NCBI GenBank assembly: GCA_003151815.1
Contig: PLYN01000012.1
Coordinates: 183-64,182, forward strand
Reading direction: 5' to 3'
Origin: Bacteroidota bacterium
GTDB lineage: Bacteria; Bacteroidota; Bacteroidia; 2-12-FULL-35-15
Length of the DNA stretch: 64,000 nucleotides
Position 1 is the stretch's first letter; every line of letters starts with the position of its first letter. Positions 11,815 through 59,594 of this stretch are shown here, one piece after another. The position numbers and the translations under genes are program-made. A model generated the notes under the pieces. That model ran no database searches. It saw only the letters and a list, made by a program, of their open reading frames with translations, and was not told where the DNA came from.

Positions 11815-11849
11815 AAACTTTAAACTTTTAAACTTTGAACTTTAAACTA
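11815..11849. repeat. Heptamer tandem array (AAACTTT flavour), single arm starting at the M20 stop codon
   Basis: aaacttt aaacttt taaacttt gaacttt aaacta. Confidence 0.8.
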
Positions 11850-12944
11850 TATCAAACTTGAAATCATTTTCACATACAAATCCACTCCTTCTTTAATTTC
11901 ATCAAGATAAATAAATTCATCTGCTGTGTGCGAACGTCCTGAAAAACCGGGACCTAACTTCAAGGATGGAAAATTCATCAAAGCCTGATCAGAAGTAGTT
12001 GGAGAACCATAAGTAGTTCTACCCAATTGTAATCCTGCCTGCACTATGGGGTGATTCATGCTGATGGAAGATGGTGTTAACCGCAATGAACGGGGTTTTA
12101 CGTCACAGGTAACATGTTCTTTAATGATGTCAAATATTTCTTGATTTTTATAAGCATCTGTAATACGAACATCCACCACAAAATCACATTTATCAGGTAC
12201 CACATTGTGTTGTGAACCTGAGTGAATAACTGTTACAGACATTTTAATTGGCCCCAACGTATCTGATACTTTAGGGAATTTATAGGTGATGAACCATTCA
12301 ATATCCTTCAATGCTTTATATATCGCATTTTCGCCTTCTTCTCTGGCAGCGTGTCCGGATTTACCATGACTGGTGCAATCAAGCACCATTAAACCTTTTT
12401 CAGAAACTGCTAAATGCATTTGAGTAGGTTCGCCAACAATTGCAAATTCAACATTATCCAGTTCAGGTAAAATAAGTTCTATGCCATTTAATCCTGAAAT
12501 TTCTTCTTCTGCGGAAGCAGCAAAAACAATGTTATACGGCATGTTTTCATTTTCATAAAAATACATGAAGGTTGCCAATAGAGATACCAAAGGTCCACCG
12601 GCATCATTGCTTCCCAGTCCGAATAGTTTTCCGTCCTCAACAATTGCTTCGAACGGATTTTTTGTATAACCCGAATTCGGTTTTACGGTATCGTGATGAG
12701 AATTTAATAAGATGGTCGGCAACCCTTCCTTATAATGCTTGTTACGCGCCCACACATTGTTCATCATGCGAAATGCCGTAATGCCTTTCGATTTCAAAAA
12801 ACGTTGCAACAAGTCCGCAGTCACGTTTTCTTCTTTACTGAATGACGGAATCGGAATTAACTGTTTAAGTAATTCTATTGAATCATCCGTTACCTGATTT
12901 ATTTTATTTTGATCAAGCGATAAGCTTTGTTCCTGTGTTCCCAT
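11847..12944 (-). CDS. argE: M20 family acyl-ornithine/acyl-citrulline deacylase (ArgE-like)
   Basis: LLNSHHDTV, GLGSNDAGG, AEEEISG, GEPT and SHTADE metallopeptidase motifs, inside the arg operon. Confidence 0.85.
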   Translation of the reverse strand: MGTQEQSLSLDQNKINQVTDDSIELLKQLIPIPSFSKEENVTADLLQRFLKSKGITAFRMMNNVWARNKHYKEGLPTILLNSHHDTVKPNSGYTKNPFEAIVEDGKLFGLGSNDAGGPLVSLLATFMYFYENENMPYNIVFAASAEEEISGLNGIELILPELDNVEFAIVGEPTQMHLAVSEKGLMVLDCTSHGKSGHAAREEGENAIYKALKDIEWFITYKFPKVSDTLGPIKMSVTVIHSGSQHNVVPDKCDFVVDVRITDAYKNQEIFDIIKEHVTCDVKPRSLRLTPSSISMNHPIVQAGLQLGRTTYGSPTTSDQALMNFPSLKLGPGFSGRSHTADEFIYLDEIKEGVDLYVKMISSLI

Positions 12945-13707
12945 TTCCGTTTGTAATAGTTATTAAATCTTTTGAATGTGCAATCATTACAGCCGACACA
13001 CCATTTCTGATCGCATCGAATGCATTGTCGAGTTTAGGTATCATTCCTTTAAAAATAACACCTTCCGAAAGTAAATCTTTATATGAATTCTGCGTAATGA
13101 TATTGATCACTGAACCATCATCTTCCACATCCCTCAATACGCCCTTCTTTTCAAAACAATAGTTGAGTTGCACATCGTATTTTTTTGAAAGTGCAACAGC
13201 CAAAGCCGAAGCAATCGTATCTGCATTGGTGTTTAATAATTGTCCTTCTCCATTGTGCGTAATGGCTGAAAAAACCGGTGTTATGTCGTTTTCCAAAAAA
13301 ACAGAAATCATTTCTACATTCACTCCAGAACTTTCAATGTCGCCAACGAAACCATAATCAATATCTTTCACCTTACGCTTGCTTGCATTGATTGTGTTAG
13401 CATCTGCACCTGACAGCCCAATTGCATTGCATTTTTTTGATTGCAAGGCTGCAACAATTTGCTTGTTGATCAAGCCGGCATAAACCATGGTTGTCACCTT
13501 TAATGTCTCCGCATCAGTAATCCTTCTTCCATTTACCAATTCCTGTTCAATGCCCAAGCGCTTTGCTAATTCAGTCGCGACTTTTCCACCGCCATGAACC
13601 AATATTTTCAAATCGGAGATCCTTGAAAAATCAGAAAGAAATTTTTCTAATTCCTTTGGTTCATCTATTACGTTTCCACCGATCTTTATGACGTGTAATT
13701 TTTTCAT
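12913..13707 (-). CDS. argB: Acyl-glutamate kinase
   Basis: VIKIGG, VHGGG, LLNTNADT and GMIPKL. Start placed at MKKLHV. Confidence 0.95.
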   Translation of the reverse strand: MKKLHVIKIGGNVIDEPKELEKFLSDFSRISDLKILVHGGGKVATELAKRLGIEQELVNGRRITDAETLKVTTMVYAGLINKQIVAALQSKKCNAIGLSGADANTINASKRKVKDIDYGFVGDIESSGVNVEMISVFLENDITPVFSAITHNGEGQLLNTNADTIASALAVALSKKYDVQLNYCFEKKGVLRDVEDDGSVINIITQNSYKDLLSEGVIFKGMIPKLDNAFDAIRNGVSAVMIAHSKDLITITNGNGNTGTKLIA

Positions 13708-13720
13708 ATACCTCACCACA

Positions 13721-13757
13721 CCTCACCCCCGTCCCCTCTCCACTTGGAGAGGGGGGA
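13721..13757. repeat. CCCCTCTCC-N4-GGAGAGGGG REP-like element
   Basis: cctcaccccc gtcccctctc cactt ggagagggggga in the argF'/argB spacer. Confidence 0.85.
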
Positions 13758-13770
13758 GTAACGAGGATAT

Positions 13771-14721
13771 TTATTTTGTTTCCAATATCTTTTTTAATAC
13801 CGCTTGCGCAGAAAATAAACGATTACTTGCTTGTTGCAAGATCAATGAATTAGCACCATCAAGCACTTCATCACTCACTTCTAAATTTCTACGAACCGGT
13901 AAACAATGCATCACTTTAGCGTTATTGGTCACTTCCAGTTTTTTGTTAGTTAACATCCAACTGCTATCTGTACATGCTATTTTTGCATAGTCCGTGTAAC
14001 ACGACCAATTTTTTACATATACAAAATCAGCGTCTTTTAGTGCTTCCTGTTGATCATAAACTATTTTAGCGCCTTTTGTAAAAGCTTCGCTTAGCTCATA
14101 TCCTTCCGGATGAGTAATCGTAAAATCAACATCCGTTTTCAACATCCATTCACTAAAGGAGTTGGCAACAGCTTGTGCAATGGGTTTAATATGAGGAGCC
14201 CAGGTTAATACTACTTTAGGTTTTTGTTTTTTGTTCCAGTTCTCACGAATAGTAATCACATCCGCAAAACTTTGCAAAGGATGTAAAGTAGAACCTTCCA
14301 TACTTACAACCGGAACAGTACTATATTTTTTAAACTGATTGATTATTTTTTCACTATAATCTTCTTCTTTATTTTTCATGTGTGCAAAACAACGTATAGC
14401 AATTATATCGCAGTATTGCGACAATACAGCTGCTGCGTCGCGTACATGTTCAACAGAAGAACCGTTCATCACCGCACCATCATTCATCTCTAAAGCCCAA
14501 CCCTCTTTATCCATGTTCAATACAATGGTATTCATTCCTAAATTCATCCCAGCCTTTTGAGTACTCAAACGGGTACGCAAACTCGGATTTAAAAATACCA
14601 TTCCCAATGTTTTATTTTTCCCAAGATGAGAAAACGCATAGGGATCCTTTTTAAGCATCAATGCTTCATTCACCATTTCATCGATGTTGGTGACATCGTT
14701 CACTGAAGTAAAAATTTTCAT
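13771..14721 (-). CDS. argF: N-acyl-ornithine carbamoyltransferase (ArgF' type, AOTCase/SOTCase)
   Basis: PSLRT instead of the STRT of classical OTC, HPLQ, LTWAPH and HCLPVRR. Confidence 0.93.
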   Translation of the reverse strand: MKIFTSVNDVTNIDEMVNEALMLKKDPYAFSHLGKNKTLGMVFLNPSLRTRLSTQKAGMNLGMNTIVLNMDKEGWALEMNDGAVMNGSSVEHVRDAAAVLSQYCDIIAIRCFAHMKNKEEDYSEKIINQFKKYSTVPVVSMEGSTLHPLQSFADVITIRENWNKKQKPKVVLTWAPHIKPIAQAVANSFSEWMLKTDVDFTITHPEGYELSEAFTKGAKIVYDQQEALKDADFVYVKNWSCYTDYAKIACTDSSWMLTNKKLEVTNNAKVMHCLPVRRNLEVSDEVLDGANSLILQQASNRLFSAQAVLKKILETK

Positions 14722-14734
14722 TCTTCTTTACTGA

Positions 14735-15862
14735 TTATTTTGATAAAACGCTTTTAAATGCAGCCAAAAAACTATCTATATCTTCTTTTTTAACATTCAA
14801 TGCCGGAAGTATACGTAAGGTATTTTTATCGGATGAAGATCCTGTGAACATTTTATGCTCCGACAATAATTTGTTCCTGATCGGCGCACAAGCATCTTCT
14901 AACTCAACGCCGATCATCAATCCAAGTCCACGAACTTCTTTAACACCTTTTATGCTTTTTAATTCCAGCATTAAATAATTACCCATCGTTTCAGAATGGA
15001 GAAGTAAATTTTCATCTCTGATAACATCCAACACAGCAATTGCAGCCGCACAAGCCAAATAATTTCCACCAAACGTTGTTCCCAACATACCGTGTTTACC
15101 GGGAATATTTGGTTGAATTAATACAGCAGCAACCGGAAATCCGTTACCCATACCTTTTGCAACAGTAATAATATCAGGCTTCACATCTGAATATTGGTGT
15201 GCAAAAAATTTACCCGAGCGTCCGTAACCGGATTGTACTTCATCAATAATTAGCAAGGCTCCAAATTTTTCGCAAAGCGATTTTATTTTTTTTAGAAATG
15301 CTGTTGTTGGAATGTGTACCCCACCAACACCTTGAATTCCTTCAATTATCACAGCACACACTTCATCGTTCATTGCTTTTTCAAAAGCGGCTTCATCGTT
15401 AAAAGGCAAAAATACAATGTTATCGGTCATGTTTACAGGCGCCCATATCTTTGCATCATCAGTTGCAGCAACGGCTAAAGAAGTACGTCCGTGAAATGCT
15501 TTACTGAACGAAATAATTTTTTTCTTTCCTGTATGAAAAGACGCAAGCTTTAAAGCATTCTCATTTGCCTCTGCACCACTGTTACATAAAAATAATTGAT
15601 AGTCGGTATAACCCGAAAGCTCTCCTAACTTATCGGCTAACTCTTCCTGCATTTTTATTTTAACCGAATTGGAATAAAAAGCAATTGCATTTAATTGTTC
15701 TGTTAATTTTTTAACATAATGCGGATGGCTGTGTCCTATAGAGATCACTGCATGTCCGCCATATAAGTCCAGATACTTTACACCATTTTTGTCCCATATG
15801 GTAGAACCTTCAGCCTTTACAGGCTCGATGTCGAATAAGGGATATACGTCGAATAATTTCAT
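14735..15862 (-). CDS. argD: Acyl-ornithine aminotransferase (class III PLP)
   Basis: NSGAEANE, FHGRT, IDEVQSG and AKGMGNGFP. Confidence 0.95.
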   Translation of the reverse strand: MKLFDVYPLFDIEPVKAEGSTIWDKNGVKYLDLYGGHAVISIGHSHPHYVKKLTEQLNAIAFYSNSVKIKMQEELADKLGELSGYTDYQLFLCNSGAEANENALKLASFHTGKKKIISFSKAFHGRTSLAVAATDDAKIWAPVNMTDNIVFLPFNDEAAFEKAMNDEVCAVIIEGIQGVGGVHIPTTAFLKKIKSLCEKFGALLIIDEVQSGYGRSGKFFAHQYSDVKPDIITVAKGMGNGFPVAAVLIQPNIPGKHGMLGTTFGGNYLACAAAIAVLDVIRDENLLLHSETMGNYLMLELKSIKGVKEVRGLGLMIGVELEDACAPIRNKLLSEHKMFTGSSSDKNTLRILPALNVKKEDIDSFLAAFKSVLSK

Positions 15863-15869
15863 ATTTTTT

Positions 15870-16010
15870 TAGTTTAAAGTTAGAAAGTTCAAAGTTTAAA
15901 GTTTCTGTGTTCTCTTTAATTATGAACCTTCATTTTCCATTTTAAAACTTTAAAGCTCATCATTGAAAAGTTCGCCAACTTTAAACTTTCTAACTTTGAA
16001 CTTTAAACTA
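15870..16010. repeat. Heptamer-periodic inverted-arm element (AAAGTTY/RAACTTT) in the argC/argD spacer
   Basis: Arm 15870-15904 tagtttaaagttagaaagttcaaagtttaaagttt; arm 15977-16010 aactttaaactttctaactttgaactttaaacta. Confidence 0.85.
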
Positions 16011-16020
16011 ATTATTTTTT

Positions 16021-17004
16021 CTAAAAATAATTCGCTTTCAATTTCAATCCTGTTGTTTCATCCAATCCAAATGCAAGGTTCATATTCTGAACTGCTTGTC
16101 CGGATGCACCTTTCAATAGATTATCAATACAACTGGTGATCAATAATTTTCCTTGATGCTTTTGCAAATGCAATAAACATTTATTGGTATTGACCACCTG
16201 TTTAAGATCAATTGCAACTTTACTTATGTTTACAAACGGGTGAATATCATAATATGCTTCGTACAGTTTTTGAATATTCTCCAAGCTCATATCGCATTCA
16301 GTGTATAACGTTGCAAGTATGCCGCGTGTAAATGCGCCACGGTATGGAATAAAATTCAGTTCGTTTGTAAACCCTGTTTGCAGTTGTGTTAAGCTTTGTC
16401 CTATCTCCGCTAAATGCTGATGTTCGAATGCTTTATAGATACTCAAATTATTTTGTCGCCAGCTGAAATGCGATGTGGTACTTAATGATTGACCAGCCCC
16501 CGTTGAACCTGTGGTTGCAGTAATATGAACATCAGCCTTCAACAAATGATTTGCTGCAAGCGGCAATAATGCCAACTGGATACTTGTAGCAAAACAACCG
16601 GGATTTGCAATGTAATCAGCTTCTTTTATTTTTTCGCGATTCAGCTCCGGAAGTCCATAAATAAAGGGATTAGCTGCAACTGAACCTGGAGAATTTAATC
16701 GATGATCTTGCGATAGATCAATGAGTTTTATTTCTGGATCGATCTTATTTTCAGCTAAAAACTTCTTCGCTTCGCCATGTCCCGTGCATAGAAACAAAAC
16801 ATCTATCTTATCAGACAAGGTATCTGTAAATTTCAAATTCGTATCACCAATTAGATCTGTATGAATATCGGATATAAATTTCCCTGCATTGCTTTTGCTA
16901 TGTACAAAGGCAATTTCGGCATTGGGATGATTAACAAGTATACGCAAGAGTTCTCCTCCTGTGTATCCCGCACCACCAATAACTCCTATTTTTATTTTTT
17001 TCAT
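16021..17004 (-). CDS. argC: N-acyl-gamma-glutamyl-phosphate reductase
   Basis: GGAGYTGGEL, YGLPE, ANPGCF and DNLLKGASGQAVQNMN. Confidence 0.96.
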   Translation of the reverse strand: MKKIKIGVIGGAGYTGGELLRILVNHPNAEIAFVHSKSNAGKFISDIHTDLIGDTNLKFTDTLSDKIDVLFLCTGHGEAKKFLAENKIDPEIKLIDLSQDHRLNSPGSVAANPFIYGLPELNREKIKEADYIANPGCFATSIQLALLPLAANHLLKADVHITATTGSTGAGQSLSTTSHFSWRQNNLSIYKAFEHQHLAEIGQSLTQLQTGFTNELNFIPYRGAFTRGILATLYTECDMSLENIQKLYEAYYDIHPFVNISKVAIDLKQVVNTNKCLLHLQKHQGKLLITSCIDNLLKGASGQAVQNMNLAFGLDETTGLKLKANYF

Positions 17005-17028
17005 TTGAATTTATTTTTTCTCGCTAAT

Positions 17029-17091
17029 CACGCAAATTTTCGCTGATTTTCGCTGACTTTTTTATCTGCGTTTATCTGCGAAATCTGCGTG
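17029..17091. repeat. 9/10-nt periodic inverted-arm element (CGCAGAT/ATCTGCG flavour)
   Basis: cacgcaaatttt cgctgatttt cgctga ... atctgcg tttatctgcg aaatctgcgtg in the argG/argC spacer. Confidence 0.75.
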
Positions 17092-17096
17092 CAAGT

Positions 17097-18308: not shown

Positions 18309-18318
18309 TTTTTTGAAT

Positions 18319-18999: not shown

Positions 19000-19028
19000 C
19001 AGAAGAAAATATTAAAGAATGAAACATG

Positions 19029-22422: not shown

Positions 22423-23688
22423 CTAGATTCCTAAAACAACTTCGCCGGGATCTTTTCCACCAAACAACATTTTTGTAGGGTTTTCCAACATCTCTTTTAC
22501 TTTTACAAGGAAACCAACCGATTCACGGCCATCAATGACACGATGATCGTATGATAAAGCAACGTACATCATCGGGCGAATAACTACCTGGCCGTTAACA
22601 GCAACAGGACGATCAACAACATTGTGCATACCTAAAATAGCACTTTGTGGAGGATTAATAATAGGTGTACTCATCATGGAACCAAATACTCCACCATTAG
22701 TTATAGTGAAGGTTCCGCCACTCATATCATCAATAGTAATTTTATTGTCGCGCGCTTTTAAAGCAAGATTTTTAATTGAAGTTTCAATTTGTGCAAGGCT
22801 CATCTGTTCTGCATTACGCACAACAGGCACCATCAAACCTTTAGGTGCACTCACTGCTACGCCTATATCCGCATATTTATGATAAACAATTTCTTCTCCA
22901 TCTATCATTGCGTTAACGGCAGGGAAAAGATTCAAAGCTTCAGTAACTGCTTTTGTAAAAAAACTCATGAAGCCTAGATTGGTTCCGTGAACTTCTTTGA
23001 ATTTATCTTTATATTTTGCACGTAAAGCATAAATAGCACTCATATCTATTTCATTAAAAGTTGTGAGCATGGCTGTTTCATTTTTCACAGCAACCAATCT
23101 TTGCGCTAATTTTTTACGAAGCGGTGTCATTTTTGCACGCTCGGTATCTCTGCTTCCACCCCATCCTGCAGTAGTTGAAGAGTCGAACCCTGCCGACAAA
23201 GCATTTACAACATCTCCTTTTGTGATGCGACCATCTTTACCGGTTCCGCTCAACTTATTTGCAGGAACATTATTCTCTTCCATTATTTTTTTAGCTGCCG
23301 GTGAAGGTGTTCCGCTGGCATAACTTTCGGATTTTGCAGCTTCTTTAACAGGCGCAGATGTTGCGGTAACTTTAGGAACTTCTGCTTTAACAGGTTCAAC
23401 AACTTTTGAACTTTCAACTTTCAAACTTTGAACTTTTTTCTCTCCTTTAACACTAGTGTCGATGGAACAAATAACCTGCCCCACTTTAACTGTATCACCC
23501 TCTTTAGCTAACAATTTAATAGCACCCGACTCTTCTGCGTTAATTGTCAGGGTAGCTTTGTCTGAATCAATTTCAGCAATTTCTTCATCCTTCTCAACAT
23601 ATTCGCCATCTTTTTTTATCCAACGTGCAATCACCACTTCTGTAATCGATTCGCCCGGACTAGGTACTTTCATTTCTATCGTTGCCAT
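22423..23688 (-). CDS. sucB: 2-oxoglutarate dehydrogenase E2 (dihydrolipoamide succinyltransferase)
   Basis: Lipoyl domain (EIDSDKA), E3-binding [12 protein letters not shown] and catalytic SYDHRVIDG. Confidence 0.97.
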
Positions 23689-23696: not shown

Positions 23697-23855
23697 AATT
23701 TGAAAATTTGAAAATGTGGTAATTTGAAAATGTAAAAGATCTACTATTTCAAATTAATAAATTTTTCAAATTGATTAATTTTCTTTTTTCTGATATTTGA
23801 TAATCTAGTAATAGGAAACCCTGAATTTTCAAATTACCAAATTTTCAAATTGATT
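23697..23855. repeat. 8/9-nt periodic inverted-arm element (AATTTGAA/TTCAAATT) in the sucA/sucB spacer
   Basis: aatttgaaaatttgaaaatgtggtaatttgaaaatgt ... aattttcaaattaccaaattttcaaattga. Confidence 0.8.
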
Positions 23856-27689: not shown

Positions 27690-27809
27690 AATTAAAAATA
27701 ATTTTTATGTCAACGAATTTACGAATCATTCAGTAACGCAGAATAAATTTGATGTTTTAAATAAACATTATCTTTGAGAACTTTAAACTAAAAAACTTTA
27801 AACTAAAAA

Positions 27810-28784
27810 ATGTCAAGAATACTCACCGGAGTTCAAAGCACCAACATTCCTCACCTTGGAAATATTTTAGGTGCGATCATGCCTGCTATCGAACTGTCAA
27901 AACAAACAGACAACCAATCACTTTTTTTTATTGCCGACCTGCATTCTTTAACGACCATTAAAGATGCAGAACTTTTAAAAAACAGTTCGGATGCCGTTGC
28001 TGCCACTTGGTTGGCATTTGGATTTGATACCGATAAAAATATTTTTTATCGTCAGAGTGACGTAACGGAAGTATGCGAACTAGCTTGGTATTTGAATTGT
28101 TTTACGCCTTTCCCTATGTTGGCAAACGCACATTCTTTCAAAGATAAATCAGAACGTCTGGCGGATGTGAATGCAGGTTTATTTACCTATCCTGTTTTGA
28201 TGGCAGCAGACATACTATTGTACGATGCCAACTTTATTCCGGTTGGTAAGGATCAGCTTCAACACATTGAAATGACAAGAGATATCGCTGAAAAATTTAA
28301 TTTTAAATATGGTGATGTGTTTATAATTCCACAAGCAAAAATAGATGAGAACGTAATGCTTGTTCCCGGCATCGATGGACAAAAAATGAGTAAATCATTA
28401 CATAACTTTATTAATATTTTTTTACCTGAAAAAGAATTAAAAAAAATAATATTGAGCATTGTTACCGATGCTACTCCTTTGGAAGCGCCAAAAAATCCGG
28501 ATGCTTGCAATGTATTTGCTTTGTATAAATTAATTGCAAGCGAACAGCAAATTGAAGAAATGCGTGAAAATTATTTACGTGGCGGTTATGGTTATGGTCA
28601 TTCGAAAAATGCCTTATATGAATTGATCTTAGATAAATTTGCATCTCAACGCACTACCTATAATTATTTTATGAATAACCGTGAAGAGCTGGATGCAAAA
28701 CTTCAGGTCGGCGCGAATAAAGCTAGAATTATTGCAAAAGCAACACTTAAAAGAGTACGCGAGAAGTTAGGGTTTAAGAACTAA
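27810..28784 (+). CDS. trpS: Tryptophan--tRNA ligase
   Basis: TGVQST..PHLGN (HIGH), YPVLMAADIL, VGKDQ and KMSKS. Confidence 0.98.
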   Translation: MSRILTGVQSTNIPHLGNILGAIMPAIELSKQTDNQSLFFIADLHSLTTIKDAELLKNSSDAVAATWLAFGFDTDKNIFYRQSDVTEVCELAWYLNCFTPFPMLANAHSFKDKSERLADVNAGLFTYPVLMAADILLYDANFIPVGKDQLQHIEMTRDIAEKFNFKYGDVFIIPQAKIDENVMLVPGIDGQKMSKSLHNFINIFLPEKELKKIILSIVTDATPLEAPKNPDACNVFALYKLIASEQQIEEMRENYLRGGYGYGHSKNALYELILDKFASQRTTYNYFMNNREELDAKLQVGANKARIIAKATLKRVREKLGFKN

Positions 28785-33708: not shown

Positions 33709-34007
33709 TTTAAATTTATTTCAATATATTTAATTAACGTCCCAATATTTTTCAAATCAGATTCTTTTTTTTCTATTAAATCTTGAATTCTCAAAGTAGA
33801 ATTATTGCCCATATATTTTTGCAATTTTTGTTCAACAATGACCAAAAAATAAACCAGATTCATACTATCAAGCTTACCTTTCTCAGTATATCCTGATCTG
33901 GAAAAAAGAACTTCCTCTATTTTTTTTTCAAGACGGTTTTCTAAGTCTTGCGAAAAATTAAATTCTTCGATAGCATCAAAAATTATTATAGATATCTTAT
34001 CTTTCAT
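33705..34007 (-). CDS. Acyl carrier protein
   Basis: LDSMNLV phosphopantetheine site. The ATG at 34007 overlaps the upstream TGA (ATGA). Confidence 0.8.
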   Translation of the reverse strand: MKDKISIIIFDAIEEFNFSQDLENRLEKKIEEVLFSRSGYTEKGKLDSMNLVYFLVIVEQKLQKYMGNNSTLRIQDLIEKKESDLKNIGTLIKYIEINLK

Positions 34008-35317
34008 TTTGTTTCTATACATGCGTAAATTACCATCTCTTCGTACACCGATTTCCAACCCTTCCAGATCTTACGATCGTTCAACGTATCATTATGCCAA
34101 AGACTAATAAAAACACCATTTACAGCTCTCACCTCATCTATCAACGATTTTATTTTAATGATCCCATCCGGTGGTTGAATTTTCATTCTGTATTTCAACG
34201 TGCCTTCCATCACAGCAAAAGGGTGTATTTTTAACTTCGTTTCCAATTCTGTATCCAGATCATAAAAATTAAAAGGAGTACAAATACTTGCCCTGAAACC
34301 TACCTGAGAAGCATAGCCCATGGTGTAATCATCAGTAATGTCATTATCAATTAAATTACGGTATGTTTCGGGCATCCTTAATTTTAAAAAATGTTGACGA
34401 CTTTTTGTTACATCGCGATGCAAAACATTCGACAAACGGCCTATCTCTTTTTTTAATTGTGCTTTGCTGCTATTAGAGCCATAAGAAGGATGAATACCCA
34501 CCTGGGCATAATCAGCCAACATTTTTATAAGCGATTGAAATTTTATACTTTCAATCGGTAAATTTTTATCGTTTGGTCCATAATCGCCCAGTAAGAAAAA
34601 ATAAATGCTTTTAAATTTATATTTTTTAAATATTTCCAATTGAAAATCATAGGTGTCGTAAGGGTCTTTTTGCATACCCAACAGCACGCGCGTTCGTTCT
34701 AGAATTTCCGAAAAATCACCTTCCGATATTGATTTAAAATATCCTCCAAGGCTTCGTGTAAAGCCCTTTTCGCGATAAGCATACGCATTATCAATATCAA
34801 GGGTAGAAATAAATTCAAATTTTTTTTCCGGAAAAAAGATAGACGGATACCTTTTCTGAATTAATTCTTTCATCAACAATGCCCAACTATTTACAATAGG
34901 CTTATGCAAAAAATCGTTCATGAAAGCTAAACTATCTTTAGCATCAAAACGATCATGTTCATCGCGTATGTGTGGCAAATATTCCTCGTAACGACTCACT
35001 AAATAAAAGCTTGCAGCGAATACATCAAAAGGCAATGCAGATAATTTACCTGTTGCAAAAAACACTTTGTTATTATTGAAATCAAAAACAGAAATATTCT
35101 GTTCGTTGATTCCGGTTTCAAATAATAAATTACGTGAGATGAAAAAAAGTTCGTCGGCTACTGGATTATACGTGTAACTTAATTTTGCACCTTCATATCG
35201 TTTTAATTCCTCCGCATCTGTAGTTAAACTAAAATCAATACCAAGAATATCTTTAAACATCAAGTTAAAAATATACTTATTACGATGCGTGATTTTATGG
35301 GTATATACGAGTAGCAT
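34004..35317 (-). CDS. Polysaccharide deacetylase family protein (DUF7033-like N-terminus)
   Basis: FYLVSRYEEY, TLDID, GIHPSY, SRQHFL and GVFISLWHN. Start placed at MLLVYTH. Confidence 0.85.
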   Translation of the reverse strand: MLLVYTHKITHRNKYIFNLMFKDILGIDFSLTTDAEELKRYEGAKLSYTYNPVADELFFISRNLLFETGINEQNISVFDFNNNKVFFATGKLSALPFDVFAASFYLVSRYEEYLPHIRDEHDRFDAKDSLAFMNDFLHKPIVNSWALLMKELIQKRYPSIFFPEKKFEFISTLDIDNAYAYREKGFTRSLGGYFKSISEGDFSEILERTRVLLGMQKDPYDTYDFQLEIFKKYKFKSIYFFLLGDYGPNDKNLPIESIKFQSLIKMLADYAQVGIHPSYGSNSSKAQLKKEIGRLSNVLHRDVTKSRQHFLKLRMPETYRNLIDNDITDDYTMGYASQVGFRASICTPFNFYDLDTELETKLKIHPFAVMEGTLKYRMKIQPPDGIIKIKSLIDEVRAVNGVFISLWHNDTLNDRKIWKGWKSVYEEMVIYACIETK

Positions 35318-35339
35318 TGTCAATTGTCAATCGTTAATT

Positions 35340-36488: not shown

Positions 36489-36576
36489 TGTTAGTTATCA
36501 GTTATTAGCGAATAGTTATTATAAAATGGAAATTGATTTCCATTTTATCTTATCAGCACATCGTCTCATTAGCACA

Positions 36577-37310: not shown

Positions 37311-37340
37311 AAAAAAATGCCCCAAATTAAGGGGCATCTT
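37311..37340 (-). terminator. Intrinsic terminator after the oxidoreductase gene
   Basis: Minus strand ATGCCCC-ttaattt-GGGGCAT-TTTTTT. Confidence 0.75.
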
Positions 37341-37374
37341 CAAATTTTCAAATTGATTGATTTTCAAATTATTT

Positions 37375-39513: not shown

Positions 39514-39515
39514 GT

Positions 39516-41740: not shown

Positions 41741-41818
41741 TTTTATTTTAGTATTGAGATTTGAGATATGAGTATTGAGAATCTCACATCTCACATCTCA
41801 TATCTGAAAATCTAATTT

Positions 41819-42814: not shown

Positions 42815-42872
42815 TGTGTATATAGTTTAGTTATTTATTTTATTTTTTTGCCTATTCGCTATTATCAATTCT

Positions 42873-43478: not shown

Positions 43479-43589
43479 TTTTTTATTTTTTGTTGTTTGT
43501 TAATCTACTCTTTATTGTTAATAGTCTTTTTGACTTTTAACTTATTATCTAAATCTTCTGACTTTTACTTAAGCCTTTTTGACCTTATA

Positions 43590-44424: not shown

Positions 44425-44537
44425 TTTATTATTTAGTTTAAAGTTTATTAGTTTAAAGTTTGAAAGTCTTAAGTTTTAAAAGCTGCCTGATATTCGCAAA
44501 CTTTAAACTTTGAACTTTTCAACTTTGAACTTTAATA

Positions 44538-44885: not shown

Positions 44886-44939
44886 ATTTTTTTACAATTC
44901 TAATACCTAACTCTAAATAATTTAGGATTTAGGATTTTT

Positions 44940-47600: not shown

Positions 47601-47694
47601 TACTTTATTTTTTATTTGATGATTTGATGACTTAGTGATTTAATGATTTATCCTTAAAAATCTCTAAACCTCCAATTCAATAATTCTCTATTCT

Positions 47695-47871: not shown

Positions 47872-47959
47872 TTTATTTTTTAGTTTAAAGTTTTTAAGTT
47901 TAAAGTTCAATTGTTGGTCTTAACTTTCCAGATTGAACTTTCTAACTTTGAACTTATTT

Positions 47960-48896: not shown

Positions 48897-48952
48897 TTTT
48901 TTAAACTTATTTCTATCGCGGTTTGAGGCGATAATTGTGAACTCTTTACTTA

Positions 48953-49507: not shown

Positions 49508-49591
49508 TTTATATAAGTTTTAAATTCTAAATTCTAAATCCTAAATTCCAAAATTGTTTTACTACAACTTGAAATTTATTATTTCGAATTT

Positions 49592-49987: not shown

Positions 49988-50065
49988 TTTATTTGGTTTT
50001 ATATGTTATCCCGCACGCAGGATAATTATACATTAATACTCTTTTTTAATTCTAACTGATAAATA

Positions 50066-51672: not shown

Positions 51673-51766
51673 TTTTTATATTAGATTTAAGATTTGAGAC
51701 TTGAGATTTGAGAATGAGAACTTTTTTATCTCCTATCTCAATACTAACATCTCACATCTATTTTTA

Positions 51767-52024: not shown

Positions 52025-52095
52025 TTTATTTAGATTTTAGACTTTAGATTTTAGATTTTAGATTGAGAAAAAATCTCACCTCTAATATCTCATAT

Positions 52096-52305
52096 CTATG
52101 ATCTATTTTTTGCTTCTGCTATTTCTCTAGTGCGAAGTTCGGTTTGCAATCTTGCTACTGTTTTTCTGCTGAAAGTAATTTTCAACGGATTTTCAATAGG
52201 CGATACTGCGTGATTCAACTTTAATTTAGCTAAAGTGCCTTTTTCTTCTTTCACACGATCACGAAGATCGCTGGTTGAAAGTTGTTTTATGTCTGCTTGT
52301 TTCAT
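52096..52305 (-). CDS. rpmC: 50S ribosomal protein L29
   Basis: Position between rplP and rpsQ; ENPL....RKTVARLQT. Confidence 0.97.
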   Translation of the reverse strand: MKQADIKQLSTSDLRDRVKEEKGTLAKLKLNHAVSPIENPLKITFSRKTVARLQTELRTREIAEAKNRS

Positions 52306-52791: not shown

Positions 52792-52835
52792 TATGTTTTA
52801 TTTATTAAATATCAATTAAACCGTTTTATTATCTA

Positions 52836-53609
52836 TTAAGATTTTCTAAAATCTCTTTTGTCTTTACGTGGTGCTCCTTTTGGAAATTTTGGTGCTCCAC
52901 TTCCACCAAATGAAGGCGCTCCTTTTTTATCTTTCGAACCTGCACCAGCTGCTGCTGCTCCAACATTCGGAGATAAATCACGTTTACCATAAATTTCGCC
53001 TTTGCATATCCAAACTTTTACACCGATACGGCCGTAAGTTGTATGTGCTTCACCTAATGCGTAATCAATATCAGCACGTAATGTATGCAATGGAGTACGA
53101 CCTTCTTTATAACCTTCCACACGTGCCATTTCAGCACCAGCCAAACGACCAGAACATTTTACTTTAATACCTTCAGCACCCATACGCATCGTTGACGCTA
53201 CAGCCATTTTCACAGCTCTACGAAAAGAGATACGACCTTCAATCTGACGAGCAATGCTATCTGCAACTAAACGAGCATCTAACTCCGGACGTTTAATTTC
53301 AAATATATTGATTTGAATATCCTTGCTGGTTATTTTTTTCAACTCTTCTTTAATTTTATCAACCTCTTGACCGCCTTTACCAATAATAATTCCAGGACGG
53401 GAAGTATTAATTGTAACAGTAATAATTTTCACTGTTCTTTCGATCACAATTTTAGAAATGCTAGCTTTCGCTAAACGTGCTTTCAAATATGTTCTGATCT
53501 TATGATCTTCAACTAATTTGTCAGAAAAATTTTTCCCACCATACCAGTTTGAATCCCATCCTTTAATGATGCCTAAACGTAAGCCTATTGGATTTGCTTT
53601 TTGTCCCAT
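52836..53609 (-). CDS. rpsC: 30S ribosomal protein S3
   Basis: [13 protein letters not shown] and [10 protein letters not shown]. Confidence 0.99.
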
Positions 53610-53622
53610 TGAAAATTATATA

Positions 53623-54057
53623 TTATTTAGTTTCTTCTTTTACTACTTTTTCCTTTTTTTCTTTTTCAACTTTGCTATCCACAACAATTGTTACGTGGTT
53701 AGAACGTTTTCTGATTCTGTTCGCACGACCTTGTGGAGCAGTTCTTAAACGTTTCATTTGAAGAGCGCTGTCAACAAAGATTTCTTTAACAACTAAGTTG
53801 CTGTCTTCAGGACGTTGTCCTGTTTTTGCTTCGTAGTTAGAGATCGCTGAAGTAAGCAATTTTTCTAATCTTCCAGATGCTTCTTTCGGATTGAATTTTA
53901 AAATATTCAATGCCATATATACTTCTTTACCTCTGATAAGATCAGCAAGTAATCTCATTTTACGAGGAGACGTAGGACAATTTTTCAATACAGCAAAATA
54001 TCTGCTTTTGTTTGCCTCTTTTTTTGCGTCCGCTGCGGTTTGTTTTCTAACACCCAT
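53623..54057 (-). CDS. rplV: 50S ribosomal protein L22
   Basis: [14 protein letters not shown] and [14 protein letters not shown]. Start corrected to MGVRK at 54057. Confidence 0.98.
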
Positions 54058-54138
54058 TTTATTTGAATTTTGAGATTTGAGATTTAAGATTTGAGATTTT
54101 TTATCTCTTGTCTGATATCTCAACTCTAATATCTATAT

Positions 54139-54417
54139 TTATTTTTTAGCCTTGTCTTTATTTCCTGAGTGACCTCTGAACGTTCTGGTTGGAGAAAACT
54201 CACCGAATTTATGACCTACCATATTTTCTGTAATGTATACAGGAATAAATTTTTTACCGTTGTGAACCGCTACTGTTAATCCTACGAATTCAGGAGAAAC
54301 CATTGATCTGCGTGACCATGTTTTAATTACTGTTTTTTTTCCTGTTGCTTGTAAGTCGAGTAATTTTTTCTCCAACTTCCAGTCGATAAAAGGACCTTTT
54401 TTTAATGATCTTGACAT
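54139..54417 (-). CDS. rpsS: 30S ribosomal protein S19
   Basis: [10 protein letters not shown] and MVGHKFGEF. Confidence 0.99.
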
Positions 54418-54474
54418 TTCTTATTGTTTTTTAGTTGTGAATCCCGGATGTCCGCGACCATTAAACTTATTTAA

Positions 54475-55299
54475 TTATTTTTTTCTACTTGCGATAATGT
54501 ATTTGTTAGAAGCTTTCTTAGGGTAACGTGTTTTGTACCCTTTAGAAGGAATTCCTTTGCGTGAGCGAGGGTGACCACCAGATGCTCTACCTTCACCACC
54601 ACCCATTGGATGATCCACAGGATTCATAACAACCGGACGAGTTCTCGGTCTGCGACCTTGCCAACGAGAACGACCTGCTTTACCACTTATCTCTAAATTA
54701 TGATCAGGATTTGAAACGGTACCAATAGTAGCCATACAAGTAATTAATATCATACGAGTTTCGCCTGAAGGCATTTTGATAACAGCGTATTTACCATCTC
54801 TTGCATTTAATTGTGCTGATGAACCAGCGCTACGTGCCATAACAGCACCTTGCCCCGGACGTAATTCAATGTTGTGAATTGCGGTTCCCAATGGAATGTC
54901 AGCTAAAAATAATGTATTTCCTATTTCTGGAGTTGCGTCTTTACCTGAAAGAATTTTTTGCCCTACTTGTAATCCGTTTGGAGCAACGATATAACGTTTT
55001 TCACCATCCGTATAAACCACTAAAGCAATACGTGCAGTACGATTTGGATCGTACTCAATTGTTTTAACCGTTGCAGGAACACCGGTTTTTTCTCTTTTAA
55101 AATCAATGATACGGTATTGTTGCTTGTGACCACCGCCGATATAGCGCATTGTCATTTTACCTGTGTTATCACGTCCACCCGATTTTTTTACCGGCACCAA
55201 TAAACTTTTTTCAGGTTTACCGTGAGTAATATCGTCGTTATCACTAACTAATTTAAAACGTTGCCCTGGGGTTAAGGGTCTGAATTTCTTTAAAGCCAT
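54475..55299 (-). CDS. rplB: 50S ribosomal protein L2
   Basis: [11 protein letters not shown] and [13 protein letters not shown]. Confidence 0.99.
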
Positions 55300-55433
55300 C
55301 TCAGTTTATTTTATTATCACCCCGACTGCTCGGGGTATAGTTACTTTTATTCTTGCGTCCCATAATCGGGATTCTAATCTTATAAACACAGATTGGAAAT
55401 CTATGTTACTTCACAGTTAAAAACCTATATTAC

Positions 55434-55724
55434 TTAAATGCTTGCGTAAAAATCAATCGTTTCGCCAGCTTTAAGAGTAATGATAGCTCTCTTATGTTTG
55501 TTAACTCTACCAATTGCAATTCCTTTAGTAGTGTTACGGGTTTTTACTTTACCAACATAATTTTGTGTGTTTACAGAATCAACTGTAACGCTGTACATTT
55601 TTTCAACAGCATTTTTTATTTGCACTTTGTTAGCATTACTATCTACCACAAAACCATAGCGATTAAATTTATCACCTTGGGATGTCATTTTTTCGGTTAT
55701 AACCGGTTTGTTTATGATGCTCAT
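55434..55724 (-). CDS. rplW: 50S ribosomal protein L23
   Basis: KPVITEK, ANKVQIK and KRAIITL. Confidence 0.99.
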   Translation of the reverse strand: MSIINKPVITEKMTSQGDKFNRYGFVVDSNANKVQIKNAVEKMYSVTVDSVNTQNYVGKVKTRNTTKGIAIGRVNKHKRAIITLKAGETIDFYASI

Positions 55725-55729
55725 TTTAT

Positions 55730-56359
55730 TTAATTGCTTAATAATTTTTCAATTTCTTTCACCGAACTCTCAACAAGTAAAAGATTATTTGCGTTCAAAA
55801 TATCGTAAGTGTTTAAATCCGAAGCAGTTACCACTTTTGCGTTGGTTAAATTTCGGGAGGACAAATATATGTTTTTATTTGATTCGCCCAACACTAATAA
55901 GGTTTTTTTATCTGAAAGCATTAAATTATTAATCAAATCAGCATATTTCTGTGTTTTAGGAGAATCGAAAATGAAATCTTCCAAAATAGTTATATTGCTG
56001 TCTTTTGCTTTATAAGTTAAAGCTGACATACGAGCCAAACGCTTTAATTTTTTGTTCAATTTAAACGAGTAGTCTCTGGGGCGCGGACCGAAAGCTCTAC
56101 CTCCACCAACTCTGGTAGGAGATTTGTCATTACCCACACGAGCACCACCAGTACCTTTTTGTTTCTTTATTTTTTTAGATGAACCACGTATTTCAGCTCT
56201 TTCTTTCGATTTGTGAGTTCCCTGACGTTTATTTGCTAAATGTTGTTTAACATCCAAATAAATGGCATGGTCATTTGGGTCGATGCCAAAGATCGCATCG
56301 TTTAGGCTTACTTTCTTTGAAGTAGCTTTACCGCTTATATTTAATACTGATACTTCCAT
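55730..56359 (-). CDS. rplD: 50S ribosomal protein L4
   Basis: [19 protein letters not shown] and FGPRPRDY. Start placed at MEVSVL. Confidence 0.99.
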
Positions 56360-56360
56360 T

Positions 56361-56978
56361 TTATTTTTCAATTGTAACGTATGAACCTTTTGCTCCTGCT
56401 ATTGAACCTTTAACGATAATAAGGTTTTTCTCAGCGATCACTTTTAATACTTCCAAGTTTTGGATCTTTACACTGTCTCCGCCCATTCTACCACCCATTC
56501 TCATTCCTTTGAATACGCGGGAAGGCCATGAAGAAGCTCCTAATGATCCTGGTGCACGAGCACGATCATGTTGACCGTGAGTACTTCCACCAACACCGGA
56601 AAATCCGTGACGCTTAACAACTCCTTGAAAACCTTTTCCTTTAGAAGTTCCTGCAACATCAATGAAATCACCTTCAGCGAATACTTCCACTGTAACAATT
56701 TCACCAAGAGTTTTCTCAGTATTGAATTTTTTGAATTCAACGATTTTACGTTTAGGAGTAGTAGCAGCTTTAGCAAAATGACCTTTCATCGCAGAAGAAG
56801 TATTTTTTTCTTTCTTCTCATCATACGCTAACTGAACTGAAACATATCCGTCTTTTTCTAAGGTTTTTACTTGCGTAACCACGCAAGGACCAGCTTCAAT
56901 AACTGTGCATGGTATATATTTACCATTGGCACTGAAGATACTGGTCATTCCAACTTTTTTACCTATTATTCCAGACAT
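56361..56978 (-). CDS. rplC: 50S ribosomal protein L3
   Basis: [15 protein letters not shown] and [10 protein letters not shown]. Confidence 0.99.
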
Positions 56979-57007
56979 TTTATTATTTATTATTTATTTA
57001 CTTTTTA

Positions 57008-57316
57008 TTATGATGCTTTGATTTCAACCTCTACTCCACTTGGTAATTCAAGTTTCATTAGTGCGTCAACTGTTTTTGAAGTTGAGTTATAAATGTCCAA
57101 CAATCTTTTGTAAGAACATAATTGAAATTGCTCACGTGCTTTTTTGTTAACGTGTGGTGAACGTAAAACGGTATATATTTTTTTGTGAGTTGGCAATGGA
57201 ATTGGTCCACTAACAACAGCACCCGTTAATTTCACAGTTTTAACAATTTTCTCAGCAGACTTGTCAACTAAGTTGAAGTCGTAAGATTTTAATTTGATTC
57301 TGATTTTTTGGCTCAT
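57008..57316 (-). CDS. rpsJ: 30S ribosomal protein S10
   Basis: [10 protein letters not shown] and [13 protein letters not shown]. Confidence 0.99.
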
Positions 57317-57344
57317 AGTTGTATATAAAGAACGTTGTTAATAA

Positions 57345-59465
57345 TTATACTTTTTCTGCTTTACCTTTTGCTTTTGCTATAACCTCATCAGAAGTATTTC
57401 TTGGTGCTTCTGCATAATGTGAAAATTCCATTGTAGATGTTGCACGTCCGGAAGTGATGGTACGCAATGTTGTCACATAACCGAACATTTCAGACAAAGG
57501 CACTTTTGCTTTGATAACCTGGGAACCGGCTCTTGTATCCATCCCTTCGATCATCCCTCTGCGTTTATTTAGATCGCCTACCACATCACCCATATTTTGC
57601 TCTGGAGTAAGAACTTCTACTTTCATAATTGGCTCTAATAATACCGGTTTTGCTTTTGGCAATGCTTCACGGAAAGCGGCACGTGCACAAATTTCAAAAG
57701 ACAATGCATCTGAATCGACGTTATGATATGAACCATCTAATAATCTTACTTTTAATGTATCTACAGGATAACCTGCCAATACACCATTTACCATTGCTGA
57801 TCTGAATCCTTTTTCAACAGCCGGAATAAATTCGCGAGGAATATTACCACCGGAAATTTCATTTACGAATTGTAAACCACCCGCTTTTGTTGTTGTATCG
57901 AAATCTGCATCAACAGGAGAAATAACAACTTGTATATCGGCAAACTTACCGCGACCACCGGATTGTTTTTTGTAAACTTCGCGGTGTTGAACAGTAGCAT
58001 TAATTGTTTCTTTGTATGAAACCTGAGGAGGACCTTGGTTCACCTCTACTTTAAATTCTCTTCTTAAACGATCAACAATGATCTCTAAGTGAAGCTCACC
58101 CATACCACTAATAATGGTTTGCCCACTTTCTTGATCCGTTTTAACACGAAAGGTTGGATCTTCTTCAGCTAATTTAGCTAAACCATTACCTAATCTGTCC
58201 AAGTCACCTTGAGTTTTAGGCTCAATAGCAACACCGATAACCGGCTCAGGGAAATTCATTGACTCAAGAACGATCGGATTTTTTTCATCACAAAGCGTAT
58301 CTCCTGTTTTAATATCTTTAAATCCAACAGCTGCTCCAATGTCACCTGCTTCAATAAAATCAATTGAATTTTGTTTGTTAGCATGCATTTGGAAGATACG
58401 TGAAATACGTTCTTTACTGCCGCTACGGGTATTATACACATAAGAACCTGCATCTAAACGACCCGCATACACACGGAAGAAACACAAACGACCAACAAAA
58501 GGGTCTGTTGCAATTTTAAATGCTAAAGCAGTAAATGGTTCTTTGACGTCAGGTTTACGAGAAATTTCTTCGCCGGTATCAGGATGAGTACCTTTTGTGC
58601 TTTCTTTATCCATTGGACTTGGCATCAATTCCATAACCAAGTCTAACATAGTTTGTACACCTTTGTTTTTGAAGGCTGATCCGCAAACCATAGGAACAAT
58701 TTTATTAGCGATACACGCCTTTCGAAGAGCAGTTAAAATTTCCAATTCAGTAATTGAATTTGGATCTTCGAAAAATTTCTCCATGATAGCATCATCGAAC
58801 TCAGAGATAGCTTCCAACAATTTTTCTCTCCACTCTTTTGCTTCATCCAACATATCTGCAGGAATAGGAACTTCTTTAAACGTCATTCCTTGATCATGCT
58901 CATTCCATTCAATTCCTCTAAAATTAATTAAATCAACAACGCCGGTAAATGTTTCTTCAGCACCAATCGGCAATTGTAAAGGAATCGGATTTCCACCCAA
59001 TACTTCTTTTACTTGCGCAACCACTTTTAAGAAGTCGGCACCTGAACGATCCATTTTATTTACGAAACCGATACGGGTTACGTTATAGTTATTTGCCAAT
59101 CTCCAGTTTGTTTCTGATTGAGGCTCAACACCGTCAACCGCAGAAAACAAAAATACCAAACCATCAAGAATACGCAATGAACGGTTTACCTCAACAGTAA
59201 AATCAACGTGTCCGGGAGTATCAATAATATTTACTTTGTATTGTTCTCCTTTGTATTTCCAGAAACAAGTAGTGGCAGCAGAAGTGATTGTTATACCACG
59301 CTCTTGCTCTTGTACCATCCAATCCATTGTAGCTGCACCATCATGTACTTCACCAATTTTGTGATTTACACCTGTGTAATAAAGAATACGCTCTGTACAG
59401 GTAGTTTTACCTGCATCGATGTGAGCTGCAATTCCAATGTTTCTCGTATATCTTAAATCTGCCAT
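57345..59465 (-). CDS. fusA: Elongation factor G
   Basis: [27 protein letters not shown] and GMGELHL. Confidence 0.99.
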
Positions 59466-59594
59466 TTTATTTCTATTTCGGATTGCGGATTGTTGATTTC
59501 GGATTATATGCCTAATCGTTTCCTTAAGCCATTATTTTTTTAAAATTCGCAATTGCAAATTCGCAATCCGCATTTATTGTAATCTTAATATTTA

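Follow-up and report, generated by a model that had tools for sequence, protein, structure and literature searches.

The stretch of DNA studied here, hereafter the window, is 64,000 nucleotides long and corresponds to positions 183-64182 of contig C6 in the assembly of a Bacteroidota bacterium (2.53 Mb in 61 contigs, 34.6% G+C, 76.6% complete), whose nearest named relatives, as judged by one protein, are uncultured freshwater genomes of the Bacteroidota/Bacteroidia. The genes of the window are nearly all on the minus strand and include an M20 peptidase gene (argE-like), argD and argC, sucB and sucA, a polysaccharide cluster and, at 41.2-60.5 kb, a ribosomal-protein supercluster that runs from rpsL to rplQ. 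The subject of this report is a class of elements situated in the spacers between such genes. Each consists of about three to five heptamers (sometimes octamers) with G and little C, followed by a loop and a complementary array with C and little G. This design is the same as that which frames genes of the PF05635 family, whose products are Avd-like four-helix bundles, and it was first seen in the intervening sequences (IVSs) of 23S rRNA.

The original prediction, which was made from the letters of the sequence, listed 19 sites in the window as arrays of imperfect heptamers or octamers that form inverted arms in stop-to-start spacers. We detected arrays with Tandem Repeats Finder (TRF) plus direct reading of the sequence, and compared the minimum free energy (MFE) of each two-armed site with that of 200 dinucleotide shuffles. 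Arrays of period 7 or 8 were recovered at 16 of the 19 sites, whereas those at 42850 and 43530 were not convincing and the one at 36491 was seen by eye only (Table 1). The inverted arms were less uniform. Ten sites were clearly two-armed and periodic (15870, 23697, 41750, 44434, 47881, 49518, 51681, 52030, 54061 and 59474) and two others were weak hairpins, but four held single arrays, one had a pair of arrays that were not complementary and two were without an array. All ten two-armed sites folded better than their shuffles (z -2.5 to -6.4, with 0-3 of 200 shuffles as good), and the stems in the window are beaded, being composed of 4-7-bp helices with a small internal loop every seven nucleotides. 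The elements sit between protein-coding genes and none is in helix 25 or 45 of 23S rRNA. No Rfam family matched at its gathering score anywhere in the window.

The predicted permutation of units at argC/argD was confirmed, as the two arms there differ by a swap of TTTAA and TTCAA units, and the tolerance of register that had been proposed, with permuted units, is visible in the arms. Orthologous elements also vary in the number and order of their units. The arms of orthologues differ by whole units and therefore cannot be aligned column by column. In the S5-L30 spacer, a periodic hairpin was present in all eight of the same-genus genomes (8/8), yet at least four unrelated unit types were represented. 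Within the window itself, the elements of the rpoA-L17 and L29-S17 spacers share 77% identity over about 80 nt.

Analysis of the whole genome showed that 333 of 472 period-7/8 arrays are outside open reading frames (ORFs), though ORFs cover 87% of the genome; arrays were also found in frame inside genes. Intergenic period-7 TRF arrays numbered 268, compared to 20-38 in five dinucleotide shuffles of the intergenic DNA, and were therefore about ten times commoner than in the controls. The corresponding numbers for period-8 arrays were 111 and 26-40. Autocorrelation of the intergenic DNA peaked at lags 7, 14-15 and 21-22. A reverse-complement partner no more than 250 nt away was identified for 141 of 305 intergenic arrays, while control partners were seen for 9 (complement alone), 5 (reverse alone) and 13 (direct repeat). 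Arrays and pairing thus exceeded their controls, so that the refuting condition set by the original prediction, equal periodicity and pairing in shuffled DNA, was not borne out. In total, we counted about 100 paired elements in the genome plus about as many single arrays, nearly all of them gene-less.

For counts of geometry and context the paired arrays were collapsed into 100 elements, 77 of which are between co-directional genes and 16 between convergent genes, with only 4 between divergent genes. The elements therefore occupy transcribed gene-end regions and avoid promoter regions. In the 77 co-directional elements the 5' arm starts a median of 5 nt after the stop codon (interquartile range, IQR, 0-15) and the 3' arm ends a median of 15 nt before the next start (IQR 8-25). 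The median loop of the elements is 70 nt. These distances bear out genome-wide the placement and architecture described earlier for the window, in which a G-containing arm at the stop is followed by a loop and a complementary C-containing arm before the start. Once the stem is discounted, a median of 16 nt of unpaired spacer is left. Ordinary tight spacers have this length, as do the orthologous ribosomal-protein spacers elsewhere in the class, which in other families are mostly 0-30 nt and lack a hairpin. Arrays are present in 197 of 1496 co-directional gene pairs, and about 13% of genes start or end within 40 nt of an array. The arms act as inverted repeats, and many elements begin with TTAG or TAAG and finish with CTAA; comparisons with empty sites gave no defined target-site duplication, and near-identical genomes yielded no insertion event.

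The arrangement of the arms was highly polarized. The G-containing arm is 5' and the C-containing arm 3' in 92 of the 100 paired elements, an order that reads alike on both strands and so is independent of the orientation of the element. The unpaired arrays do carry information on gene direction: those found only upstream of a start are C-type by 35 to 3, and those found only downstream of a stop are G-type by 35 to 9. The array at 27779-27810 in the window agrees with the rule that C-type arrays precede starts. Background G/C skew was considered as the cause of this orientation and rejected, as the background shows almost no such skew. Two further explanations for the arms were also rejected. 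Intrinsic terminators have a GC-rich stem and a U-run, neither of which was seen, and the stems are AT-rich, periodic, followed by A-rich leaders and located inside ribosomal-protein operons. The idea that the 5' arm serves to provide stops in every frame was not borne out, as such three-frame stop codons, though enriched (19 of 77 elements against 5% in controls), are far from universal.

The sole PF05635 (23S_rRNA_IVP) gene of the genome is located at C58:30564-30881, between AAAGTTY/RAACTTT arms; its flanks are AGTTTAAAGTTCAAA on one side and TTTGAACTTTGAACTTTAAA (in a shorter quotation, TTTGAACTTTGAACT) on the other. As this only gene is on another contig, the copies in the window are all empty, as had been noted, and no PF05635 gene was found there. 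The encoded protein is related to pentameric XCC0516 (PDB 2GSC) and to 2RLD. PF05635 genes were identified in 29 of 31 relatives, with 1-11 genes in each, and about 22 of the 26 loci that could be read had a G-containing heptamer array at the host stop, then the PF05635 gene, then a complementary array ending at the next host start. The arm units at these loci differ between protein subfamilies. A genome-contig search with a single protein located homologues across phyla, and close homologues of the C58 protein in Bacteroidota, Acidobacteriota and Chloroflexota had inverted arms at 55 of 74 loci (control 11). The best period was 7 in 49 of the 55 armed loci, and the unit was RRTTYAA throughout. 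Across 65 cassettes, protein identity was correlated with arm 5-mer similarity (Spearman rho 0.62, with 0 of 2000 permutations as high), which means that gene and arms are passed on together as a unit. The link to four-helix-bundle genes of the 23S IVS type, which the original prediction had put forward, holds in this genome, its genus and its class, and in Acidobacteriota and Chloroflexota. PF05635 proteins are considered homologues of Avd from diversity-generating retroelements (PMC10053308). Separately, the genome has a single reverse-transcriptase (RVT_1) match, a 520-aa open frame (C12:1702-2142).

At least eight unit families were distinguished in this genome. The earlier claim that each locus has its own unit did not hold, as AAAGTTY occurs at about 90-115 loci of the genome and other units recur too. 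Similarly, the description of the family as one of architecture rather than sequence was correct in that the architecture is recognisable, but the units fall into families that are common to loci, genera and phyla. Of the 151 genomes sampled from the class, 53 (in 38 of 100 genera) had AAAGTTY arrays, and this genome was the richest (73 pattern matches versus 1 for the control). TAGTTRT arrays were found in 14 of the 151 genomes, and are likewise most abundant in this one. AAAGTTY-rich genomes hold the cognate protein subfamily more often (odds ratio 9.6, p 3e-5), as do genomes with TAGTTRT arrays (odds ratio 8.7, p 0.007), in tests that ignore phylogeny and count the cassettes' own arms; the non-cognate pairings were weaker (3.6 and 3.9). 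A strict need of the arrays for a cognate protein gene was rejected, because the TAGTTRT family occurs without one in this genome, G068 and G006.

Comparison of orthologous spacers identified both filled and empty states, at S17-L14 and at sufB-sufC. The S17-L14 spacer of G007 has a PF05635 gene between ATTTCGGATTTCGG... and ...ATCCGAAATCCGAAATC, and the same spacer of G002, the closest relative, has an empty TTCGGAT hairpin with arms as in G007. The window has a different, TTGAGAT-type, gene-less hairpin in that spacer. Its S7-fusA element aligns with the S17-L14 elements of G002 and G007 over arms and loop, at a mean column identity of 74% (alignment A1), and these are thus one element type in different spacers of different species. 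In the sufB-sufC spacer within the genus, intact cassettes were found in G010, G012, G003, G018 and G006 and pseudogenes in G009 and G014, while G001 has a 196-nt relic in which the arms are kept and most of the ORF is deleted; in G005 and G007 the spacer is 14-26 nt with no element. Based on this series, some of the empty hairpins, at least, were left behind when a gene was lost. The series points to loss of the gene from filled cassettes and not to its capture by empty ones, and the suggested role of the elements as cargo-acceptor sites was not supported. Copies without a gene probably also arise independently or multiply by themselves. No other cargo was identified in this genome, where arrays 250-1600 nt apart enclose only ordinary genes (RuvA-, SufE-, MoaE- and Fur-like by sequence).

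The closest known counterparts are the 23S rRNA IVSs that carry an ORF (Coxiella burnetii, Leptospira and others; S23p = PF05635). In the IVS of Coxiella burnetii the S23p ORF is preceded by GACAGAT heptamers in tandem, two or three depending on the strain, and RNase III has been shown to excise this IVS, with the cut at the first repeat (PMC4990558). The elements described here share with IVSs the long stem of complementary flanks, the tandem heptamers that Coxiella has in its 5' flank (with G-rich repeats upstream in both) and, in filled cassettes, a PF05635-family protein in the loop. They differ in being between operon genes rather than in the two rRNA helices, and in number, as there are about 100 or more per genome, nearly all gene-less, in contrast to one IVS per rRNA operon. 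Together, these data make it very probable that the elements are IVS-type stem elements outside rRNA, most of them gene-less. Our literature search found no paper on inverted heptamer arms around PF05635 genes in operons, or on gene-less copies; we found no published account of the general picture, the only trace of it being the remark on heptamers in the Coxiella IVS paper (PMC4990558).

Other dispersed repeats resemble these elements in part. As in the repetitive extragenic palindrome (REP) systems of the REP/REPIN-RAYT type and in Ssn/NTS (PMC11893778), short hairpin repeats are dispersed extragenically at gene ends, one small gene is framed by repeats, and the type of repeat tracks the protein subfamily. 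Unlike REP/REPIN-RAYT, the arms here are tandem 7-nt units and not one fixed palindrome, the loops are unique to each copy, and the associated protein is a four-helix bundle without known catalytic activity. We rejected membership in REP/RAYT because the two Y1_Tnp (RAYT-like) genes of the genome are framed by other, GC-rich REPs and not by heptamer arrays. These genes, at C14:1044-1382 and C34:60926-61270, have their own REP palindromes, GCCCTGAAAGGGC and CAGGTCGCTCCTACGGAGC, respectively. Copies of the second type are in the long window spacer 11403-11846. Conventional REP systems and heptamer hairpins are therefore present side by side in this genome. Correia elements of Neisseria, ERIC and the Rickettsia palindromic elements are co-transcribed hairpin repeats that resemble miniature inverted-repeat transposable elements, and they illustrate that transcribed spacers can tolerate small insertions with inverted repeats; processing by RNase III has been reported for Correia elements. 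By comparison with such repeats, the elements described here have periodic arms and no single consensus, and neither a target-site duplication nor a cognate transposase was identified for them.

Tandem heptamers that are not inverted have also been described. The passages of PMC4679880 drawn on here report a general excess of heptamer simple repeats, and direct repeats of the heptamer TAACTGA that precede start codons in Beggiatoaceae, Cyanobacteria and five Bacteroidetes. Judging from those passages, the heptamer simple sequence repeats (SSRs; TAACTGA, the cyanobacterial STRR and the long SSRs of Mrazek et al. 2007) have in common with our arrays the tandem 7-nt intergenic units. They also share the forward orientation just before starts, the overlap with upstream stops, including in ribosomal-protein operons, and often the stop codons in all three frames. 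They are direct repeats of one unit, for which those passages mention no complementary partner arrays and no link to PF05635 genes, whereas the arrays of this genome belong to several unit families and about half of them are paired.

As to how the elements may work, the following is proposed. An element would be co-transcribed with its host operon and its two arms would pair in the mRNA, looping out the insert and leaving the stop and start about 16 nt apart. We propose that inserts are tolerated even across the ribosomal-protein supercluster because looping out would leave only this short unpaired spacer. By its likeness to the homologous Coxiella IVS, the beaded stem of 20-35 bp would be a likely substrate for RNase III, whose cleavage would free the loop or the mRNA of the cargo and would divide the transcript of the operon. 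Whole-unit slippage is probably how the periodic arms arise and change, and their periodicity would keep them pairable after the gain, loss or permutation of units. RNase III was found in all 15 of the good-quality relatives (15/15). We consider it on balance probable that the elements are, as a whole, IVS-type stem elements in mRNA spacers, for the most part without a gene, which loop out at the RNA level and may be cut by RNase III; for the working at the level of RNA, taken by itself, we judge the case to be evenly balanced.

Several observations weigh against this proposal. The RNase III gene (rnc) was not found in this 76.6%-complete assembly, and stems that are AT-rich and have an internal loop every 7 nt may be poor RNase III substrates. 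The gene boundaries used for the distance statistics were crude ORF calls. The element loops are mostly unrelated to each other, and a blastx search of the loops of the approximately 100 elements gave no PF05635 remnant (best E 0.08), so most of the empty copies are not demonstrably decayed cassettes. In addition, selection for pairing in the sense RNA might have left an excess of G.U at the non-Watson-Crick positions of the 77 stems; none was found (34 G.U versus 42 A.C), and sense and antisense strands were equal in fold stability (38 versus 38). The complementarity of the arms may therefore be kept at the DNA level or be young, and not selected in RNA pair by pair. Based on all of the strand tests, gene direction matters for the placement of each type of array, and pair-by-pair selection on RNA is not visible.

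These strand-symmetric mismatches are what would be expected of pairing in DNA or of copying from arm to arm, and they lend some weight to an alternative in which the elements are a protein-repeat system acting on DNA, like REPIN/RAYT or Ssn/NTS. The arrays would then be DNA sites (single-stranded DNA hairpins or cruciforms) for the four-helix-bundle protein, which would spread or maintain them, with any effects on RNA being incidental. Such a system would accommodate the inheritance of arm type together with the protein subfamily, seen in different phyla and at different host loci, the preference of array-rich genomes for the cognate subfamily (odds ratios of 9.6 and 8.7 as compared with 3.6 and 3.9 for the cross pairings), and the occurrence of one element in different spacers, together with the existence of paralogous copies. 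A parallel is provided by the Ssn nucleases, which are framed by repeats that they cut (PMC11893778). REP/RAYT is a second parallel. Against such a system, proteins of the PF05635/Avd type are pentameric four-helix bundles (PDB 2GSC, 2RLD) without known nuclease or recombinase activity. The stock of proteins in this genome fits poorly: a single PF05635 gene would have to serve at least eight unit families, and the approximately 59 TAGTTRT-array matches have no cognate protein gene, though the genome is incomplete. Furthermore, the association tests were uncorrected for phylogeny and each cassette's arms add to the counts, and the gene-direction rule of the unpaired arrays would not be required of a purely DNA-level element. 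Overall, we regard a DNA-level system as unlikely. A broader version, which we find doubtful, is that the pentameric IVS proteins are trans-acting readers of heptamer arrays, each subfamily reading its own unit, in a widespread self-perpetuating protein-repeat system whose copies that landed in rRNA are the 23S IVSs.

The gene-direction rule would be explained directly if the two types of array were translational signals. C-type arrays would be leaders that favour initiation without Shine-Dalgarno pairing (e.g., as S1 or cold-shock-type sites) and G-type arrays their anti-sequences, such that a terminating ribosome would unmask the next start and couple the two genes. In addition to the ratios of 35:3 before starts and 35:9 after stops, this is consistent with the geometry, as about 15 nt separate the 3' arm from the AUG, with an A-rich stretch after the arm, while the 5' arm starts at the stop codon and within the footprint of a terminating ribosome. 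It is also consistent with the proportion of genes (about 13%) that have an array near their start or stop, and with the comparable TAACTGA repeats before starts, for which S1, Csp and CsrA have been proposed as readers (PMC4679880). A single sequence-specific reader is unlikely, as the units differ widely, and the arrays are dispensable, given that orthologous spacers in other families are 0-30 nt without an array. Moreover, two elements of the window (S8-L6 and map-infA) have the opposite polarity, and the framing of PF05635 genes in three phyla would be left unexplained. Translational signalling as the basis of the class therefore appears improbable to us.

The last alternative, that the arrays are a functionless by-product of polymerase slippage in AT-rich spacers with some arms complementary by chance, draws on the statement of Mrazek 2007, relayed by PMC4679880, that heptamers are the commonest class of long simple-sequence repeat in many prokaryotes, with slippage proposed as their cause, on the variable number and order of units among orthologues and on the arrays in frame inside genes, but it is very improbable and was largely refuted by the pairing, orientation, PF05635-locus and shuffle controls: partners that are reverse complements outnumber control partners 10-30 times, the elements are strictly placed between stop and start, with one polarity in 92 of 100 paired elements, the arrays are tied to one protein family across phyla, and full-length homologous copies, loop included, occur in different spacers.

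Table 1. Arrays and hairpins at the sites examined in the window (window coordinates; z from the fold test; x, number of repeat units).
Feature	Position	Strand	Location	Evidence and remarks
Single array AAACTTT x4.7 on + strand (AAAGTTT in gene sense)	11815-11848	-	directly 3' of stop of M20-peptidase gene 11847-12944	no complementary partner; best inverted repeat 7; TRF, Pfam
Two-armed AAAGTTY hairpin	15871-16009	-	fills argC-argD spacer	arms 15871-15904 and 15977-16009; 80-nt loop; fold -41.2 kcal/mol, z -6.4
Two-armed octamer hairpin AATTTGAA/TTCAAATT	23697-23851	-	fills sucA-sucB spacer	arms 23697-23731 and 23825-23851; z -5.9; ~13 related loci in genome
Single C-type array AACTTTAAACTAAAA x2.1	27779-27810	+	divergent spacer; ends at ATG of Trp/Tyr-tRNA synthetase-family (tRNA-synt_1b) gene	no partner arm; TRF, Pfam
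Short single array TTGACAA (sense) x3.4	35316-35339	-	fills 16-nt spacer before start of gene 34004-35323	no partner; TRF
Two non-complementary heptamer-like arrays (GATGTGC..., TAACTRA...)	36491-36576	-	flank ordinary 12-bp hairpin 36521-36548	below TRF threshold
Single octamer array, AATTTGAA type	37339-37374	-	after stop codon	adjoins canonical GC-rich terminator with U-run 37314-37340; TRF, fold
Two-armed TTGAGAT/ATCTCAY hairpin	41754-41805	-	rpoA-rplQ (L17) spacer	TRF; z -4.8
Site 42850: no convincing array or stem	42815-42872	-	rpsD-rpoA spacer	MFE -1.9; best inverted repeat 4.5; no genome copies; outside the family on present evidence
Site 43530: scattered TTTTGAC-like words, no tandem array, no stem	43479-43589	-	rpsK-rpsD spacer	no genome copies
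Two-armed AAAGTTY hairpin	44433-44535	-	rpmJ (L36)-rpsM (S13) spacer	TRF; z -3.4; like-type hairpin at this spacer in G002
Short weak hairpin CCTAAAT/ATTTAGG	44896-44937	-	map-infA spacer	reversed polarity (C-type arm first in sense); TRF array 44920-44937
Octamer array TTGATGAT on + strand (AAATCAYC in sense)	47614-47667	-	before rplO (L15) start	weak partner (score 7.5); related arrays in this spacer of relatives; TRF
Two-armed AAAGTTY hairpin	47876-47956	-	rpsE (S5)-rpmD (L30) spacer	TRF; z -2.7
Two-armed hairpin TAAATTC (+ strand)	49521-49591	-	rpsH (S8)-rplF (L6) spacer	reversed polarity (G-type arm beside start); TRF; z -4.3
Two-armed TTGAGAT-type hairpin	51682-51760	-	rpsQ (S17)-rplN (L14) spacer	TRF; z -4.7
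Two-armed TTTAGAT/ATCTNAN hairpin	52029-52098	-	rpmC (L29)-rpsQ (S17) spacer	TRF x5.1; z -2.5; 4-5-bp helices with periodic internal loops; orthologous hairpin in G002
Two-armed TTGAGAT-type hairpin	54061-54134	-	rpsS (S19)-rplV (L22) spacer	TRF x5.6; z -2.8
Two-armed TKCGGAT/ATCCGMA hairpin	59475-59570	-	rpsG (S7)-fusA spacer	TRF; z -2.9

Other features were observed in the spacers of the ribosomal-protein supercluster. A third repeat, GTCACCCYGAGCGGAGTCGARGGG, occupies the S12-S7 and L16-L29 spacers (window 60063-60132 and ~52320), and its core, GAGCGGAGTCGA, has 49 copies in the genome. Non-periodic hairpins at 49988-50065 (S14-S8), 54418-54474 (L2-S19) and 48897-48952 (L6-L18) are conserved throughout the genus, in some cases with compensatory stem changes, and are candidate autoregulatory protein-binding sites. 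The L23-L2 spacer (window 55300-55433) is 134 nt in length as compared to 52 nt in G002; the extra 80 nt contain two ordinary hairpins and represent a separate, non-periodic insertion. In the relatives L002, L003, L005 and L007 the S8-L6 spacer is 18-19 nt, with AGGAGG about 8 nt before the L6 start (AGGAGA in L006), and in the window the periodic hairpin is in place of this spacer. Bacteroidota generally do not use Shine-Dalgarno pairing, and AGGAGG before the L6 start was therefore unexpected.

Heptamer arrays inside genes of the window were seen in two places. At 23400-23437, an array of the AAAGTTY type, a unit shared with the intergenic hairpins, is inside sucB in the region of an inter-domain linker. 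At 62636-62807, about 10 copies of AGAAGAC are followed by about 4.7 copies of CAATCGT within an 833-aa ORF (60999-63500, + strand); a downstream HASKGLEFPYVYIVGLEE motif suggests that the product is a UvrD-like helicase, and the arrays are apparently translated as a linker.

Taken together, three features that have lacked an explanation, namely the excess of intergenic heptamers, the sporadic intervening sequences of 23S rRNA and the large PF05635/Avd-like family of unknown function, look like facets of one class of elements. The window presents the gene-less state of this class at high density, with hairpins filling a dozen of the stop-to-start spacers, among them spacers in the cell's most highly expressed and most tightly coupled operons. 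This raises the questions of how bacteria that lack Shine-Dalgarno pairing can tolerate, or make use of, long structured insertions between cistrons, and of whether RNase III processes operon mRNAs at heptamer stems. If the IVS proteins were indeed readers of the arrays, then the gene-less copies at the stop or start of about 13% of genes, including most of the ribosomal-protein supercluster, would constitute a post-transcriptional or genome-dynamics network.

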